Of a DNA stretch of 64,000 bases, positions 8,831 through 28,481 are shown one piece after another. Position numbers and translations under genes: made by a program. The notes beneath the pieces were generated by a model. The model did no database searches. It was not told the origin of the DNA and was given only the letters and a program-made list of their open reading frames with translations. Where the stretch lies: positions 244,919 to 308,918 of the forward strand of contig CAVXEP010000013.1 of the NCBI GenBank assembly GCA_963760795.1, read 5' to 3'. The number at the start of each line of letters is the position of its first letter. The stretch's first letter is position 1. The stretch is from an uncultured delta proteobacterium. Its GTDB lineage: Bacteria > Desulfobacterota > Binatia > UBA9968.

Positions 8831-9424
8831 ATGAGAAACAACATGGTGCGTCTCACGCTTGTCGCTCTGCTCTTCGCGCTTAGCTTTTCCGCCGACGCCC
8901 AGCAGCCGGCGGGAACTCCCCGGATAGGAACCCTGGCCGCGGCCTCCGCGACCCCGGATCTAGGTGGCAAACGGTTGGAACTGCTCAAGGAAGTCTTCCC
9001 TAATCTTGACCGGGTGGCTTTCCTCTGGGAACCGGGTACTCCGAGAGGAAACGAGCCCCTCACAGATATGGAGGCTGCGGCCAAGGCGTTACGACTCACA
9101 CTTATATCGATCGAGGTGCGAAGTGTTGGCGATTTTGAGGACGCATTTGCGCGAGTGAGAAAGGAACGCGCCCAGGCGCTCATTATGAACCCAGGTCCAC
9201 TTTTCAATACTCAGCAACGCCAAATCTTGGACTTCGCGGCAAAGAACCGGTTGCTGGCGATGTACCCAACCAGTGAATTTGTTGAGGCCGGCGGCTTGAT
9301 GAGCTACGCGCCGATCGAGCAGCCGATAAAGTTTGAGTTCATCGTCAATCTGAAAGCGGCGAAGCAGATCGGCCTGACGGTTCCCTCGAATGTGCTGGCG
9401 CGGGCGGATAGGGTGATCAAATAA
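8831..9424 (+). CDS. Internally deleted ABC_sub_bind-type SBP (197 aa; two in-frame deletions)
   Basis: Signal peptide, 'KRLELLKE' and the terminal 'VLARADRVIK' are kept. About 95-100 aa and about 26 aa are missing relative to 7692-8684. Confidence 0.75.
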   Translation: MRNNMVRLTLVALLFALSFSADAQQPAGTPRIGTLAAASATPDLGGKRLELLKEVFPNLDRVAFLWEPGTPRGNEPLTDMEAAAKALRLTLISIEVRSVGDFEDAFARVRKERAQALIMNPGPLFNTQQRQILDFAAKNRLLAMYPTSEFVEAGGLMSYAPIEQPIKFEFIVNLKAAKQIGLTVPSNVLARADRVIK

Positions 9425-9637
9425 GCACGCGGCGATGCTAGGAGTGAACTGAATTTTCCATCTAACAAATCCTGTGAAAATTGCCTGTGGCGTCTTACAA
9501 TTCAATCCTGCGGCATTCCGCGCGTTGCGACTCTTCAATTTAGTCCAACACGCTCGTTTTAGCGCTTTCCCGCAACTTGATTGTTTCCAAGCTTTGGGGA
9601 TAAAACGCTTCACGATAGGCTGCTTTTGAGGCCGAGC

Positions 9638-11254
9638 ATGTTCCTCATATTGAAGAAGTTTAGTCTGAGGGTAATTATCCCGAGCGTTTCCCTGATCATA
9701 CTTGTGAACCTGCTTCTTTCAGAGTCCCATGAAAGTAATCCGCATAAACGCATCGAAGAGGCGTTGGCCTCGGGGAATTATGACCTCGCAAAGGCGGAAT
9801 ACCGAAAGCTGATTCAGGACAACTTCTTCAAGGTCGAGTATCACAGAGGCTATATTCGTAGCCATCTCAGGCTATCTGAGCGGACAACCCGCCCGTCCAG
9901 GCGAGACAATCAGGACATAATAGAGGGGTATCGGCGCTACGCTTCGGCGAGTGCTCCCGAAGTGTCTGATATCGGCTACTACGGACTCGGCTTTTTCTAC
10001 GGTCTTCAGACCGACGACGAGCGGGCACGTGAGAATTTTCTGCACGTTCGGAATACACGACTCCCCTACCTGAACTATTCTCTTGGAGCCATCTATAGCA
10101 GGACGGGTCGTCGCGATCTCGCGAAGCAACACTTCGATCGAGAGATCCAACTTGGAGGCATTGTCACCGGAGCGTATTCGAACCTCGCTGTGCTGCTTTT
10201 CGCAACAAAGCAGTACAGTGAGCTCAAGCAAATTGCTGCGCGTCCTGAAGCAAAAAACTCTATCCCATTGGATATCCGACGCTTACTTGCGCTACGAGAG
10301 GGGAGGTATGCGGACTACGTACGGGAAGTTTTGGGTTTCCACGGCGTAACCACCTACGGTCTTCTCGGCGCTGTGCTGATACTTGGCGCGTGGTTTGTCT
10401 ATCTCCAGCAGATCGAGGTGTTCGAGCCGAAACGCCTTTGGTTCGGCGGGATAATCCTGGCCGGAGGGATGATTTTTTCTTGCTTTGCGCTCCCGCTCTA
10501 CGATTTTGCCTTCGGATTCCGCCCCAATCTCACAAACCTGAGCGATCTCCTTTTTTATATGTTTTTAGGCGTGGGACCGATTGAGGAAGTACTAAAAATT
10601 CTTCCTATGCTCCTGCTCATGTGGTTGACCCCTGCGCTCGAAAAGCCAGTGAACTACATTATCTACGGCTCTATATCGGCGCTAGGATTCGCCTTCATGG
10701 AAAACCTGCGCCCTTCCTATGAATGGAGACTCGGAGCAGTCTCCACGCGCGCCTCTGGCGCTGTCATCCTGCACATGACACAGACATCATTAGTTATGTA
10801 CGGCCTCTTCTACAGCAGGTACCGCGTCAAGAAAAAGCCGTTTCAGTACTTTCTCCTCGCTCTTTTAGCAGCATGCGTCCTTCATGGGACTATTGATTTC
10901 TTATTGTTCAAGGGCTGGGGCGTTCTCTGTCTTCCAATACTGATTTATGTCATCCGCCAGTACGGTATCTTTATCAATTGCACCCTGAACCTGTCCGACG
11001 GTAATCCGGACCAGCCAAAGCGACAGCTCGATCTCACCGAGTATCTCTGCTATTCGCTGGCGGCCATCGTTATCCTCCAGTATGTCGCAATGGCTGTGAA
11101 GTACGGCCCCAGCAATGCCAACTCGGCTTTCCTCGGGACAGCATTTCTCTCGTTTTTTTTGCTATGCGTGATTTTGGTAAACCTCGGGAGCTTCGACATA
11201 CAAAAACGGCAATGGTTGCCACTGCTGAGGAGGAAAGCAACCTCAGAAATATGA
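9638..11254 (+). CDS. TPR-containing PrsW-family intramembrane glutamic protease
   Basis: N-terminal helical TPR-like region, then multiple TM segments with 'GPIEEVLK', 'GFAFMEN', 'ILH' and 'LHGTIDF'. Visibly lower GC than neighbours. Confidence 0.8.
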   Translation: MFLILKKFSLRVIIPSVSLIILVNLLLSESHESNPHKRIEEALASGNYDLAKAEYRKLIQDNFFKVEYHRGYIRSHLRLSERTTRPSRRDNQDIIEGYRRYASASAPEVSDIGYYGLGFFYGLQTDDERARENFLHVRNTRLPYLNYSLGAIYSRTGRRDLAKQHFDREIQLGGIVTGAYSNLAVLLFATKQYSELKQIAARPEAKNSIPLDIRRLLALREGRYADYVREVLGFHGVTTYGLLGAVLILGAWFVYLQQIEVFEPKRLWFGGIILAGGMIFSCFALPLYDFAFGFRPNLTNLSDLLFYMFLGVGPIEEVLKILPMLLLMWLTPALEKPVNYIIYGSISALGFAFMENLRPSYEWRLGAVSTRASGAVILHMTQTSLVMYGLFYSRYRVKKKPFQYFLLALLAACVLHGTIDFLLFKGWGVLCLPILIYVIRQYGIFINCTLNLSDGNPDQPKRQLDLTEYLCYSLAAIVILQYVAMAVKYGPSNANSAFLGTAFLSFFLLCVILVNLGSFDIQKRQWLPLLRRKATSEI

Positions 11255-11269: not shown

Positions 11270-12352
11270 TCATTTGATTATCCTAGTCGCCCGCGCCAGA
11301 ACCTCCGGCGCAATCGTCAAACCGATCTGTTTCGCCGTCTTGAGATTGATCACAAACTCGAACTTCATCGGCTGCTCCACCGGCAGGTCGGCGGGCTTGG
11401 CTCCCTTCAAAATCCTGTCGATGTAATATGCGACTCGCCGGTAGCTGTCCGCGAAGTCCGCTCCGTAGTACATCAGCCCACCCGCATCTACAAATTCGAT
11501 GCTCTGGTACACCGACGGCAACCGGCTCTTTAACGCAAGGCCGACGATCCGTTTTGTGTTAGCACGCAAGACTGAGCCCGCGCTGGACACATAGAGTCCA
11601 TCAGGGCGCTGTTTGCCCAACGCAGCGAATACCCTGTCGAAATCGTCCACAGTGCGTACCTCCCACGGCTGAAGAGTCAACTTCAGCGCACGCGCCGCCA
11701 CTGGGAGAACTTCTTTCACCTCGCGTACGCTAGCCGGAGTTGACACACTGCCCGGATCGTAGAGAAACGCGACACGAGCAAGTTTGGGAACCGCTTCTTT
11801 GAGCAGCTCCAACCGCTTCCCGCCAAGTTCTTGGCTAAGGTTTGTAATGCCGGTGACGTTGCCGCCGGGACGGGCAAGGCTTTCAACGAAGCCTGCCTCG
11901 ACAGGATCGACCCCTCCGCCCACCATAACGATGGGAATTGTCTTGGTGGCATTCATGGCCGCCAGGATCGGCCCACCCCCTCTTGCTACCACGATGATTT
12001 CGACCTTGAGATGCACCAGCTCGGCCGCAAGCTCGGGGATCCGATCGCGCTTCCCCTCCGCAAATCGGTATTCGGTGGCGATGTTCTGTCCCTCGATGTA
12101 GCCGCGCTCGCGCAGGGCCAGCCGAATTGCCTCGGCACGGGCGGAGTCACTAACTGCATCGCCCGGCGATAGATACCCTATCCGCGGGACTTTCTTCGGC
12201 TGCTGAGACTCAACCCCGCCTTCCAATCCTACGAACGCGATAACGAGGGCGAGCAACCCTAGCCATTTTGGATCGCGGATTTTAATCCGCGGGGCCGCTT
12301 TTGGATTACCGGAAAAAGAATCGGAAACTCGCTTCGAAGCAATTATTTTCAT
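11270..12352 (-). CDS. ABC transporter substrate-binding protein (ABC_sub_bind type)
   Basis: 'PRIGYL...GYIEGQNI', 'SLARPGGNVTG', 'GGLMYYG', terminal 'PEVLARATRIIK'. ATG at 12352. Confidence 0.9.
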   Translation of the reverse strand: MKIIASKRVSDSFSGNPKAAPRIKIRDPKWLGLLALVIAFVGLEGGVESQQPKKVPRIGYLSPGDAVSDSARAEAIRLALRERGYIEGQNIATEYRFAEGKRDRIPELAAELVHLKVEIIVVARGGGPILAAMNATKTIPIVMVGGGVDPVEAGFVESLARPGGNVTGITNLSQELGGKRLELLKEAVPKLARVAFLYDPGSVSTPASVREVKEVLPVAARALKLTLQPWEVRTVDDFDRVFAALGKQRPDGLYVSSAGSVLRANTKRIVGLALKSRLPSVYQSIEFVDAGGLMYYGADFADSYRRVAYYIDRILKGAKPADLPVEQPMKFEFVINLKTAKQIGLTIAPEVLARATRIIK

Positions 12353-12392
12353 GCGTCTTATTCCCCCATCCAAAATCGAAAATCCAAAATTA

Positions 12393-13066
12393 ATCGCGGT
12401 AGGGACGGTCATTGCTGACCGCCCCCCGCACAGACCCGTACGTGCGGCGCTACCGCATACGGTTCTTACCTCGGATGTTGACGTGCAAAGCTACACGTAC
12501 ACCCAGCAATCCGCGCGACCTGGCTACGAACGGTTTCCCGTCCGAGTTCCGGCTCTGTGTCCGGTCCAGTAGCGATTGCTCGGTGTTCTCCTTGGTCAGT
12601 CCCCTTCCCTCCGCCAACTCCGCAGGCAGCGCCACGCCGCCCTTGTTCGCTGGTTTCTTCGGTACTATGGAACTGTATGACTCCCCGTTAACGTGCATGT
12701 CGGGATTGTGGCCTCGCGCCTTCTCCGACCGTTCCGCTTCTGTTGTAGAAACGGAAGTCACCGGGGTCTCTCGGCTTCCGTGAGAAAAGTTTCCAACCGT
12801 GCCAGTGGTCTTTGACTCCGTGGGGGTCCCATCGAACTTGCCAATATCGCTCGACATGACTGTTGCCTTCCCCATATCAAGATAAGGTCGGCCTCCACAA
12901 AAGGGTGTTTTCGGAGCTCAATACACCGCCCGGTTGTACCTCTGTGAACGCTTCGCCCTGCCGGTTGCCCGACACTGCGCATCACTCGAGGCCAAGGCGA
13001 CTGGCTAGGTCTTACCTCGTACGACTCTTTCATTCGCTACCTTCCTCCGGCTTTTGCCGACGCTTC
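12393..13066 (-). mobile_element. ORF-less group II intron (IIB-like), IEP internally deleted
   Basis: Minus strand: domain V GAACCGTATGCGGTAGCGCCGCACGTACGGGTC (12465-12433); domain VI GGGGCGGTCAGCAATGACCGTCCCTACCGCGAT ending at 12393; domain I motifs. EBS1 CTTGAT (12881-12876) is complementary to the 5' exon end ATCAAG. No RT motifs. Confidence 0.9.
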
Positions 13067-13105
13067 CTTGATGACCTTATTCGCTCGCGTGAGCACCATC
13101 GGCGG
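13067..13105 (-). pseudogene. 3'-terminal relic of an ABC_sub_bind SBP gene (intron 5' exon)
   Basis: Encodes PPMVLTRANKVIK, matching the family C-terminus. Removing the intron places TAA (12392-12390) directly after the last Lys codon. Confidence 0.8.
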
Positions 13106-13180
13106 ATTTGCTCAGCCAAACGAATGCGCTTGACCTATGTCCCCCTTGCTCTTAGAATTCCCTCGTAGGAGGTTTTTCCA

Positions 13181-13399
13181 ATGAGAGCGATAAAAATCCA
13201 TGTGCCAGATACCCTGCTGCGCAAGCTGCCTAAGAGCCAAGCCGAGAGAAAAGAAGTTGTAAGATTGGGACTGCAGCGCTTCACTTCGCGTCGGCGCAAG
13301 AAAGCGCGTAGCGTTGTAGACGATACTTTTGCCGCGCTGGCCGTCCGAAACCATGCCAAAATAGAGCAGCTGATTGAGCAAACAAAATATGGCGATTAG
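13181..13399 (+). CDS. Putative antitoxin (VapB-like)
   Basis: 72-aa ORF with GGAGG RBS, overlapping the downstream PIN gene. Confidence 0.7.
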   Translation: MRAIKIHVPDTLLRKLPKSQAERKEVVRLGLQRFTSRRRKKARSVVDDTFAALAVRNHAKIEQLIEQTKYGD

Positions 13400-13886
13400 A
13401 TCCCTGGAGGATGTCCCGGATGAATCAAATATTTTTGTTGATACCAATATTCTCATCTATCACCTGCTTGACGATGAGTTGTATGGGGTCTCCTGCCGAG
13501 ATTTTCTCAAGCGAGTGGAGACTGGCTCGGTCATAGCGTTAACTTCGCCCATTGTCGCTTCCGAAACTCTGTTCATTTATCTTCGCGCTTGGCTTATCAA
13601 AAACAAGAAGATCGCTCCCAAACGTGTCCTTCGTTATCTCAAGCGCCATCGAGCGGCGGTCAAGGAAGTGGACTTTCATAAGCCACTGGCTCTGCTCGCC
13701 CTCATGCGGATCCTTCCCCTTAGTAAGGACGTCATGCAGACCTCCTATGACTTGATGACGCGCTACCAATTGCTCCCTGCCGATTCCATCGACGCCGCTC
13801 TTATTCGCCGCCACCATCTAGCGGCTCTGGCCACTCGCGACGACGACTTTGATCTTGTTGAGAGTCTCGATGTGTACAAGCCTTGA
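13389..13886 (+). CDS. vapC: PIN-domain toxin
   Basis: 'IFVDTNILIY', 'E', 'D', 'LATRDDDF' acidic PIN residues. Confidence 0.88.
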   Translation: MAIRSLEDVPDESNIFVDTNILIYHLLDDELYGVSCRDFLKRVETGSVIALTSPIVASETLFIYLRAWLIKNKKIAPKRVLRYLKRHRAAVKEVDFHKPLALLALMRILPLSKDVMQTSYDLMTRYQLLPADSIDAALIRRHHLAALATRDDDFDLVESLDVYKP

Positions 13887-13905
13887 ATCGCGTTTTGTTG
13901 GCCGC

Positions 13906-24222: not shown

Positions 24223-25252
24223 TCATTTGATCACCCTATCCGCTCGCGCCAAGCACCTCCGGCGGAATCGTCACGCCGATCTGCTTCGCCGTTTTCAAAT
24301 TAATGACCAGTTCAAACTTCATCGGTTGCTGCACAGGAAGGTCAGCAGGCTTCGTTCCTTTGAGGATTTTGTCCACGTAGACGGCGGCGCGCCGGAATTG
24401 ATCGCGCCGGTCATGTCCATAAGAGATGAGACCGCCGGCCTCGGACCACTCGGGGTTGCCACACATCGTCGGAATGCGGATCTTGGCCGCAAGATCCAAG
24501 AGCGTTGTTCGATGAAAAGCAGTGAAACTACCGAGAAATATAATCAGAGCCTGCGCGCGTTCCTTGGTCATCGCCGTGTAGGCGCTCTGGAACTGGTTGG
24601 GTTCCAGCATATGCAAGGGTTGAATCTGCAGTCCCAAGGTCTTTGCCGCTGTCTGAGCCTCTCTCAGTTCTTCCTGGTCCCCACCCGGACCGCCATGGTA
24701 AAGCACCGCCACGCGAGAAACCTTGGGAAGTGTTTCCCTGAGAAGCTGTAGCCGCTTTGCGCTTAAATCCGGATCGATGCTCGTAAACCCCGTAACGTTT
24801 CCACCTGGTCGCGCCAGACTGGCAACCAGGCCCTCACCGACGAGATCACCCGCGTTACCGACGAGGATAGGAATTGTACTGGTTGCTTGCTTGGCAGCAA
24901 CGGTTGCTTGCGTGCCGAAAGTTACGATGATATCCACAGGAAGATTGACGAGCTCCGCTGCTAAAATACCATAGCGCTCCTCTTTACCTTCGGCAAAGCG
25001 GTATTCGACTGAGATGTTTTGCCCCTCAATATAACTTAACTCCCGCAATCCTTGGCGTAATGCCTCAATATTAGTTGGCATTGGAGAAGAACGCGCGCCG
25101 GAGAGCAATCCAATCCGGAAAACTTTCTTCGTCGGCTGCGCCTCAACCACCGCCGCCGACAGTGTGTATGCGATAACGATGGCGAGGAACCCAGCCCATT
25201 TTAGCTTGTCTGAAAAAGAATTCAGAACCTGGGGAACAGATTTATCATTCAT
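24223..25252 (-). CDS. ABC transporter substrate-binding protein (ABC_sub_bind type)
   Basis: Family motifs present. A terminal indel hides 'VLARADRVIK*' with TGA at 24223. Confidence 0.88.
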
Positions 25253-27492: not shown

Positions 27493-28481
27493 TTATCTGA
27501 TGACTTTATCCGCCCGATACAGCACCGACTGCGGCACCGTCACGCCGATCTTGTTTGGCGGTGTTAAGATTGATCACGAACTCAAACTTGGTCGGTCGCT
27601 CGATCGGGAATGTCCGCGGGTTTGGCGCCTTTGAGAATCTTGTCCACGTAAGTGGCCGCGCGTCGGTAGGATTCGAGAAAACTTGCGCCATAGGACATCA
27701 GTAAGCCAGCGTCAGCAAATTCCTTGACCCCGCTTACCGCCGGCAGACGATGCTTGAGAGTAAGTCCCACGATCTGTTTGCGGTGCGTGTTGAACACCGG
27801 ATCGCCGAGGACCTGTAGCGCCCTCGTGCGCTCACTGACTATCGCTGCGAAGGCGCGGTCAATTTCCTCGGGATCGCGCGCCTGCAGGCTCTGCAGCTTT
27901 ACGCCTAATGCTTTGGCCGTGACTTCCACCTCTCGCAGTTGCGCGGCCTGGAACACTGGATTCGCCGGATTCCAAAGCGCTGCCACTCGGGAGATTTTCG
28001 GCAGAGTTTCCTTGAGTAGCCCCAGGGGTTTCCCAGCGGTCTCGGCAGTCATCGTAGATGTTCCGGTGAGATTCCCACCCGGCCGCGCGAGGCTGGCGAC
28101 AAGCCCGGACCCCACGGGATCGGAAACGGCCACCATCACGACCGGGATCGTCGCGGTTGCGGCCTTCGCTGCCAACGACGGTTGCGTCACCGCCGCGACA
28201 ATCACGTCGACCTTGAGACGAACTAAATCCGCGGCAAGTTCCGGCAACCGCTCGAACTTGCCGTCGGCACATCGGTATTCAATCGCGATATTCTTCCCCT
28301 CCACGTATCCAAGGTCGCGCAGACCTTGGAGGAATGCCTCGGTGAGATGCGCACTGCCAGCGCGCCCAACCGCAGTGAGATAGCCGAGCCGCGCCATTTT
28401 CCCCGGCTGCTGCGCGTCGACGAACTGCACAAAGGCGAAAATCACAGTGAGAACCGCGAGACCGAGGAGTTTTTTCTTCAT
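27493..28481 (-). CDS. ABC transporter substrate-binding protein (ABC_sub_bind type), C-terminal indels
   Basis: Family motifs. 'PIERPTKFEFVINL' lies in a shifted frame and 'ADKVIR*' ends at 27493. Confidence 0.88.

Follow-up and report, generated by a model that had tools for sequence, protein, structure and literature searches.

A group II intron without an open reading frame at a stop-codon junction of the PF04392 substrate-binding protein family, probably the stranded relic of a lineage directed to such junctions

How does an intron come to lie exactly at the end of a gene, after its last sense codon and before its stop codon, and can it still leave that place? The locus raising this question lies in a 64,000-nt stretch of DNA from an uncultured delta proteobacterium (Desulfobacterota; Binatia; UBA9968; assembly GCA_963760795.1, contig CAVXEP010000013.1, positions 244,919 to 308,918 of the forward strand). 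We call this whole stretch the window, and coordinates below are positions within it. A preliminary description, made from the sequence alone, had proposed a group II intron without an open reading frame (ORF) at 13066-12393 of the minus strand, set at the stop junction of a multicopy family of ABC substrate-binding protein (SBP) genes. We put at about 85% the probability that the element derives by deletion from a mobile group II intron whose exon-binding sites (EBSs) are tuned to the last codons of PF04392 SBP genes plus the first base of the stop (...GGUG AUCAAG^U, where ^ marks the insertion point), and that it is a stranded relic here. Five lines of evidence carry this reading: the intron boundaries; covariation of EBS1-3 with the exons; loss of about 1264 nt of the intron-encoded protein (IEP) gene; relatives at the same junction in many paralogs and genomes; and copies with an intact IEP at intact genes. 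The parts of the element, from its 5' exon to its 3' exon, are as follows; IBS stands for intron-binding site.

13067..13111, minus strand: 5' exon, 15 codons (ANPPMVLTRANKVIK) left over from the 3' end of a PF04392 SBP gene, with IBS1 AUCAAG at 13072-13067 and the IBS2 region at 13078-13073
12393..13066, minus strand: ORF-less group II intron, 674 nt, 5' GAAGCG ... CCGCGAU 3'
12806..13028, minus strand: domain I core, Rfam RF02005 (group-II-D1D4-6)
12902..12907, minus strand: candidate EBS2, CACCCU, whose CACC pairs with GGUG at -10..-7 of typical SBP ends
12876..12881, minus strand: EBS1, CUUGAU, in the 9-nt terminal loop of an Id3-type hairpin in the covariance-model alignment, with 6/6 pairs to AUCAAG
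12812..12813, minus strand: EBS3 (A at 12813) and the presumed delta' (A at 12812), in GAGUC-A-A-AGACC
12495..12698, minus strand: IEP remnant, the first 68 codons (MHVNGESYSSIVPKK...GLLGVR), aligning with the N-terminus of the 558-aa IEP of a full-length relative, L005
12432..12465, minus strand: domain V, 34 nt, from the RF00029 alignment; catalytic triad AAC, not AGC, opposite G
12396..12431, minus strand: domain VI, from the RF00029 alignment and fold; its bulged A (12400) is 8 nt away from the 3' splice site
12390..12392, minus strand: start of the 3' exon, a TAA stop, with the T at 12392 as IBS3; intergenic TTTTGGATTTT-type repeats follow

Both Rfam models recognise the element. RF02005 matches 13028-12806 (-) over its full length, as expected of a group II domain I-IV core (model 1-225 of 225, 160.4 bits against a gathering score of 49, E = 2.6e-46), and RF00029, for domains V-VI, matches 12467-12393 (-) with 40.6 bits against a gathering score of 40, its final base being 12393. 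Domain V is thus present, albeit with the AAC triad, and domain VI has its bulged A within the usual 7-8 nt of the 3' splice site; the A at 12400 is the presumed branch point. On the minus strand ...AAG GTC ATC AAG (13078-13067) runs into GAAGCG... from 13066, and ...CCGCGAT ends at 12393 directly before TAA at 12392-12390. Empty sites exist in the same genome: two intron-free paralog ends, on contigs C32 and C19, read CGGGTC ATCAAG^TAA TTTTGGATTTT..., and the window with the intron removed, AAGGTC ATCAAG^TAA TTTTGGATTTT..., aligns with them over a stretch reaching about 45 nt upstream and about 50 nt downstream. This match between empty sites and spliced junction fixes both boundaries, since shifted boundaries fail to give that sequence. 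Alternative 5' boundaries (GUGCUC at about 13097, and shifts by one base either way) were ruled out, as they do not reproduce the empty-site sequence or leave EBS1 unpaired. Homologs with 90-93% identity in other genomes have the same first and last bases within unrelated flanks, and environmental contigs with related introns part from the window at 12392-12394. The intron first proposed at 13066-12393 therefore stands on both Rfam matches and the empty-site paralogs, and what had been said of the letters at junctions, loops and paralog ends was all borne out on checking.

Two features of the sequence are unusual. Group II introns have a 5' end consensus of GUGYG; the window intron has GAAGCG (13061-13066), and among its relatives GUGCG, GAGCG, GAUGCG, GAAAGCG and GUAAGCG precede the same downstream sequence. 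A survey of the domain V triad in 33 distinct copies found AGC in 26 and AAC in 7, the latter opposite G in four (the window at 12432-12465, L005, L270 and L294, where the opposite base has gone from A to G) and opposite A in three (L006, L020 and L032). The GAAGCG end and the AAC triad are probably both tolerated, as both are present in intact-IEP copies at intact genes (L005 and L270).

Pairing with the exons ties the intron to this site. The covariance-model fold leaves EBS1 where it was originally placed, CUUGAU falling in the Id3 loop, and across copies EBS1 tracks the exon: CUUGAU goes with AUCAAG, UUUGAU with AUCAGA or AUCAAA, UCGAAU with AUCCGA, CCUGAC with GUCAGG or GUCGGG, and CCUGUC with GACAGG. 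Over 26 distinct combinations, with the 5' splice site taken as the best-pairing of up to five offsets, the mean is 5.58 of 6 pairs, against 3.55 with shuffled exons, and none of 2000 shuffles reached the observed value. The EBS2 site proposed earlier also holds up, CACC being found in 11/11 SBP-targeting copies examined and CAUC in 13 of 16 non-SBP relatives; the window's own exon, GGUC, makes 3/4 pairs with CACC, so that both the EBS1 and the EBS2 pairings are found here. The paralog ends AGGGTG ATCAAA TAA (9410-9424) and AGGGTG ATCAAA TGA (24237-24223) are present as reported, the second behind a frameshift in its gene.

In IIB-type recognition EBS3, in domain I, pairs with the first base of the 3' exon. 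The loop at 12816-12807 (-) reads GTCAAAGACC, and its EBS3 is Watson-Crick with the first 3'-exon base in 20 of 21 copies (A-U in 9, U-A in 8, G-C in 3); exon recognition is, in these predicted pairings, IIB-type EBS3 behaviour. The delta position, presumed to be U at 12882, and delta' are always U with A or G across copies, which is consistent but invariant and so uninformative. Of the two roles first assigned to this loop, EBS3 is thus upheld and delta' is only consistent.

The same junction is used by relatives. Our census was an RF02005 search of all 90 genomes of the bacterial family, all of them, like every genome compared here, metagenome-assembled genomes (MAGs): 44 had matches, with 92 places over the cut-off, of which 8 in unpublished genomes were dropped and the other 83 retrieved, besides the window (rows of one unpublished genome, G041, enter some alignments and profiles and none of the census counts). 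Sixteen copies in published genomes form the two clades nearest the window, clade A with 7 copies including the window (90-93% identity) and clade B with 9 (about 67% identity to the window). Ten of the 16 lie at the junction KV(I/L)(K/R)^stop of PF04392 genes: in clade A the window, L134 and L140, and in clade B L119, L120, L123, L125, L127, L130 and L138. The 3' exon begins directly with TAA or TGA in all eight of these for which it is known. Five of the remaining six are at ..GGGGTCRGG-type or other sites, and L133 has no clear 5' end. No member of clades A or B was found at E <= 1e-20 in a phylum-wide sample of 400 other genomes (one of the same family; two candidates scored per genome).

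Metagenomes add further examples. A scan for a GAWGCG-type 5' end, a pattern biased to the SBP clades and too general to yield frequencies, gave at least 122 matches, mostly of other intron lineages; among the matches listed, eight are at SBP junctions (L211, L224, L270, L283, L294, L299, L310 and L318), comprising all six that score at least 120 against the clade profile and likewise two truncated by contig ends. Wherever the 3' exon of an SBP-junction copy is known, in these contigs as in the census, a stop codon comes at once. A soil contig aligned to the window crosses the 5' junction of the intron with the exon AAGGTG ATTCGG. The intron also follows intact host genes, with an SBP ORF ending at the 5' splice site, in L130, L138, L211 and L270; the window lacks such an ORF.

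Protein databases reveal the same junction from the other side, through translation that runs on into the intron. The last 44 residues of the read-through frame of L270 were searched against a collection of 5.8 billion proteins and the best 120 proteins were examined. Among these 120, the tail (E/D)ASA(K/Q)AG.. after KVI(K/R) occurs in 39, 31 of them at least 300 aa long, and follows 23 distinct preceding 11-residue contexts; nine more carry clade-B tails (DAPG, EAPG, ESAGI..). All proteins with read-through tails are annotated PF04392. Proteins of this family ending in ...KVIK-EASAKAGGR, -DAPG, -EAPG or -ESAGINR (P0004-P0060) are, judged by their sequences, read-through into an unannotated intron, a systematic annotation artefact. 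The two checks suggested in the preliminary description, of the 5' exons of homologous introns and of SBP C-termini with read-through extensions, thus both came out in favour of stop-junction targeting.

Could the association have arisen once by chance and then spread passively, as intron-bearing SBP genes were duplicated and recombined, with no site-specific retrohoming? In its favour, SBP genes have undergone massive duplication and form tandem arrays, several occupied ends (L211, L283, L299) have one 30-nt exon context in common, and the IEP is broken in many intron copies (L139 and L119 are examples). Passive spread accounts poorly, however, for 90-93% identical introns in paralog ends that differ in IBS1, with EBS1 tracking the differences, and have unrelated 3' flanks, or for the 23 distinct contexts of the read-through tail among the best 120 proteins. 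Moreover, two clades about 67% identical both use the site, a single clade of all 17 SBP-targeting copies is rejected (approximately unbiased, AU, test, p = 4e-6), and full-length copies with an intact IEP sit at intact genes. We regard passive spread as very improbable and return to targeting by EBS pairing.

If the lineage is mobile, the window copy has lost the means. Its domain IV frame has 83 codons, the first 68 being the IEP N-terminus, and the whole reverse-transcriptase (RT) domain is gone, so that no intact RT/maturase is left for autonomous mobility. Compared with full-length L005, about 1264 nt are absent between intron positions ~577/578, with the junction at ~12494/12493. Full-length RT-encoding copies, for which a search had been suggested, do exist among the relatives; they measure 1941-1948 nt, and some have an intact IEP of 558-574 residues. 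The L005 IEP scores 354.8 bits with TIGR04416 (group II RT/maturase), and RVT_1 is its sole Pfam match; no endonuclease domain was found in it with the Pfam and TIGR04416 profiles, and the protein ends about 40 residues past the maturase match. The window organism's own assembly, 88.9% complete with 6.15% contamination, has no TIGR04416 match. This agrees with the earlier statement that the copy would need an IEP in trans.

The deletion junction is common to three ORF-less copies of clade A (the window, L140 and L136); junctions differ among the ORF-less copies of clade B. We do not take the common junction to prove that a single ancestral ORF-less element was moved in trans, because trees of D1-D3 have no exclusive group of these three copies. 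Recombination, or recurrent deletion at an ACGTGA/GCGTGA microhomology, is a possible source.

The host gene has also decayed. An in-frame TGA at 13114-13112 limits the KVIK frame to 15 codons, which align with intact paralog ends over about 45 nt only, and tblastn found no further SBP homology upstream of this stub. To the site as first described, whose junction letters stand, this remnant state of the host gene is to be added. Targets themselves abound: the genome has 72 jackhmmer matches to PF04392 (ABC_sub_bind) in ORFs of at least 120 aa, many of them fragments, and about 70 SBP-type termini in 6.6 Mb, often in tandem arrays parted by TTTTGGATTTT-type repeats. ATCAAG plus stop is found at 12 of 78 SBP-type termini, unoccupied, one of them identical to the window exon over 12 nt, and the window intron is single-copy in the assembly. 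With a host gene of 15 codons, no IEP match, no second copy in the assembly and twelve perfect sites empty, the window copy is most likely a stranded relic that cannot move and probably cannot be assisted in splicing. A search for an orthologous intron-free locus with the upstream flank (13067-13900) against 31 genomes of the genus returned only short matches of about 40 nt.

The nearest gene on the 3' side invites another view of this copy:

11270..12352, minus strand: intact PF04392 SBP gene, 360 aa from ATG 12352 (Pfam E = 3.6e-40), 40 nt past the intron, not the host gene

The intron might still self-splice in the 5' leader of this gene (12352-11270) and possibly affect its expression. Its ribozyme is without visible decay (160 bits, against 147-164 in full-length relatives), domains V and VI and the bulged A are intact, and it ends 40 nt before the start of an intact gene. 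Set against this, no promoter-like site upstream of the intron on the minus strand came up in a simple scan; the sole such site (13130-13158), directly upstream of the exon stub, faces away from the intron, toward a probable toxin-antitoxin pair described below. The 5' exon is a dead fragment, so that nothing selects for splicing, and the assembly is without a maturase match. An active copy is therefore unlikely, and we keep to the relic.

A stub behind the intron is not peculiar to the window. Among the 10 census copies at SBP junctions, two follow an intact gene (L130, L138), one a gene with a terminal frameshift (L119) and seven stubs of 8 to ~38 codons, whereas stubs make up about 8 of about 70 empty SBP-type ends in the window organism's genome; the excess at occupied ends gives Fisher p = 1.8e-4, in a comparison that mixes genomes and uses classes assigned by hand. 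Such a skew could mean that the stubs are by-products of intron movement, for example through cDNA running into 5'-exon RNA and integrated elsewhere, so that intron plus stub is the spreading unit. In L127, two stubs in a row follow an intact SBP gene, and the intron comes after the second of them. Yet stub length is different at every locus, the 3' flank in the window is ordinary intergenic sequence of an SBP array, as in-place deletion of the host gene would leave it, and many intact genes carry the intron in metagenomes. Survivorship, with introns persisting where a host gene can be spared, accounts for the skew and calls for no new mechanism. We therefore hold the by-product explanation improbable. 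The skew fits an intron that persists where it is harmless and may reflect survivorship in assembled genomes, as suggested by the many intact hosts in metagenome and protein data.

Several observations nevertheless count against a lineage directed to these ends and a relic in the window. (i) The short gene remnants before 7 of 10 census copies are not predicted by simple homing into genes. (ii) An IEP-encoding copy could be among the unassembled part of the genome, given its completeness and contamination. (iii) The GAAGCG end departs from GUGYG, and the triad is AAC, not AGC. (iv) Choosing the best-pairing offset somewhat inflates the observed EBS1 covariation. (v) The metagenome pattern required GAWGCG, favouring the SBP clades, and the protein search could return only proteins of 161-513 aa. 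(vi) No splicing or mobility was observed: read contigs had no joint across 12393-13066, among runs of which none clearly contained this organism (at most 0.33 of sampled words).

By established group II intron biology, a lariat-IEP particle would enter DNA by reverse splicing, after the last sense codon and before the stop; the IEP of a full-length copy would splice or move ORF-less copies. Splicing would restore ...KVIK-stop; without it, translation would add 9 residues (EASAKAGGR) in the window's clade and 4 (DAPG) in the sister clade. An extra 5' base in clade A puts a stop 9 codons into the intron in the host frame, and GAUGCGCCGGGAUAA in clade B gives a stop after 4 codons. With tails this short and the stop restored by splicing, the site should burden the host little, and each genome has about 70 of them. 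The idea of a many-copy, low-cost landing site thus fares differently in its two halves: the many copies are seen in census, metagenomes and tails, and the low cost is inferred, not measured.

How did the lineage come to this site? Relatives of the IEP are found in MAGs that carry the labels Nitrospirota, Planctomycetota and Acidobacteriota, among others, and the wider lineage is mostly at another site, AAAAGGGGTC(A/G)GG^AGTCTTT (..AAAAGGGGTCRGG^A), so that SBP targeting is a derived specialisation. A maximum-likelihood tree built from the first 520 nt of the intron (39 rows) has one group of 7 SBP copies and one non-SBP copy (support 100/99), nested among non-SBP introns, and a second of 10 SBP copies and one non-SBP copy (99/93). 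The well-supported branches force at least two target changes; a clade of the 17 SBP copies plus the two nested exceptions, a group defined after seeing the tree, gives AU p = 0.035. We favour two independent target switches, in each of which EBS1, EBS2 and EBS3 changed in the same way; alternatively, introns residing together may have exchanged segments of domain I. The ancestral site (AAGGGGUCAGG^A) resembles the SBP end (AAGGUGAUCAAG^U), so that a switch would be easy to imagine. Tentatively, and with more doubt than belief, we propose that in one uncultured soil-bacterial family two clades independently retuned EBS1 (CCUGAC to CUUGAU or UUUGAU), EBS2 (CAUC to CACC) and EBS3 (U to A), moving from ..AAAAGGGGTCRGG^A to KVIK^stop of a family of about 70 members, where a conserved C-terminal peptide and stop would serve as a distributed safe harbour and gene 3' stubs were maybe generated or preserved. 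If this retuning is true, it would show group II introns in nature settling widely, and almost neutrally, in the coding genes of a paralog family, and would offer a new model for the spread of introns through gene families.

Other introns of these genomes also have repeated or peculiar targets. A third clade (5' GTGCGCCGGTAAAAGCCGG or GATGCGCCGG...; L117, L122, L124, L126, L137 and L166, in genomes of the same family) lies after short tandem GTTCAAAGTTCA-type repeats, another multicopy target in this bacterial family. A fourth, abundant clade of RF02005 type (5' GTGTGTCCAGATG) follows, at 10-12 nt, a GGGTCAGRC-like motif similar to the window lineage's ancestral IBS (L151, L153, L157, L158, L160, L165, L167, L168, L170-L172, L174, L175, L177-L179, L182, L188, L189, L193 and L198). 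Full-length non-SBP copies L006/L141 (G049:C52) and L019/L139 (G051:C45) stand at the centres of imperfect palindromes, GGGAAAGGGGACAGG^..^CTGAGCCCCTTCCC and GGGGCGTATGG^..^CATACGCCC, respectively; with 4/6 EBS1 pairs and an EBS3 mismatch, L019/L139 looks like an ectopic insertion. Related introns also occur head to tail, on genome contigs (L072, L073) and metagenome contigs (L248, L250). These are tandem arrays, not nested twintrons, since the 5' flank of a copy is the 3' end (..CCCTACCGCGA) of another and its 3' exon is the start of the next; L073 has at least five introns in a row, of about 880 and about 2003 nt.

Around the locus, 13181-13886 (+) holds a probable toxin-antitoxin pair, in which a 72-aa ORF without Pfam match overlaps a 170-aa PIN-domain protein (PF01850, E = 1.8e-15). 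At 9581-11254 (+) a 557-aa protein joins tetratricopeptide (TPR) repeats to an intramembrane protease domain of the PrsW family (PF13367, E = 7.5e-21). Frameshifted or truncated PF04392 paralogs are common in the window, as at 24236-25252 (-), 27582-28481 (-) and 8831-9424 (+), and likewise genome-wide; the gene ending at 24236 loses its frame 8 codons before its KVIK end.

Among known systems, an intron family of Thermosynechococcus elongatus (Mohr et al. 2010) has reportedly proliferated as close relatives with diverged EBSs, including ORF-less derivatives reliant on another copy's IEP. Its copies are at unrelated sites; the copies described here instead converge on one codon-level site common to paralogs. 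ORF-less derivatives served in trans are also described for cyanobacteria (PMC12584367). The closest parallel is with the groEL introns, a specialised IIB1/CL1 start/stop-codon clade associated with termination codons that hardly alters the host protein, inserted after the second and before the third stop-codon base of a single-copy essential gene, with a 300-700-nt subdomain Ia near the 5' end and a CL1 RT bearing an endonuclease domain (PMC12584367). Like them, the present lineage is site-specific and tied to stop codons of protein genes. Unlike them, it inserts between the last sense codon and the stop, and its target is about 70 paralogs per genome. Only 38 nt separate the 5' splice site (13066) from the start of the RF02005 match (13028), leaving no room for a subdomain Ia of that size, and the L005 IEP, compared by domain content, has RVT_1 and TIGR04416 alone, with no C-terminal endonuclease.

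RmInt1 of Sinorhizobium meliloti likewise has a multicopy target, an insertion sequence (PMC1802570), and uses replication forks (PMC12584367). We liken the two by target only; that of RmInt1 is another mobile element, whereas here it is the coding end of a host gene family. Group IIC introns use an abundant generic feature such as terminator hairpins or attC sites as a low-cost multicopy landing site (PMC12584367; PMC7306698); in contrast to their recognition of a DNA hairpin with short EBS pairings, the window lineage shows ordinary EBS1-3 pairing with coding sequence, an RF02005 match and an IIB-type EBS3.

Bacterial group II introns are usually described as avoiding host genes and residing in mobile elements, behind terminators or in intergenic regions (PMC12584367; PMC7306698). 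The known exception at stop codons involves housekeeping genes present in single copy, and a lineage that has a special extra domain. The lineage described here looks ordinary and lacks an endonuclease domain; it appears to recognise the last codons and stop of a hugely expanded family by base pairing alone, and in public metagenomes the intron turns up in dozens of different genes, most of them full-length. If the targeting is as we read it, this is a testable example of nearly neutral spread of an intron within the coding genes of a paralog family. Its many target variants with matching EBS changes make a natural data set for understanding and engineering target recognition. For annotators, PF04392 tails such as ...KVIK-EASAKAGGR or -DAPG should be taken as signs of an unrecognised intron. 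No description of introns at PF04392 gene ends was found in the literature searched, which left out most subscription journals. Intron lineages targeting stop codons and lineages with multicopy targets have both been described before; what appears to be new is the association with PF04392 ends.

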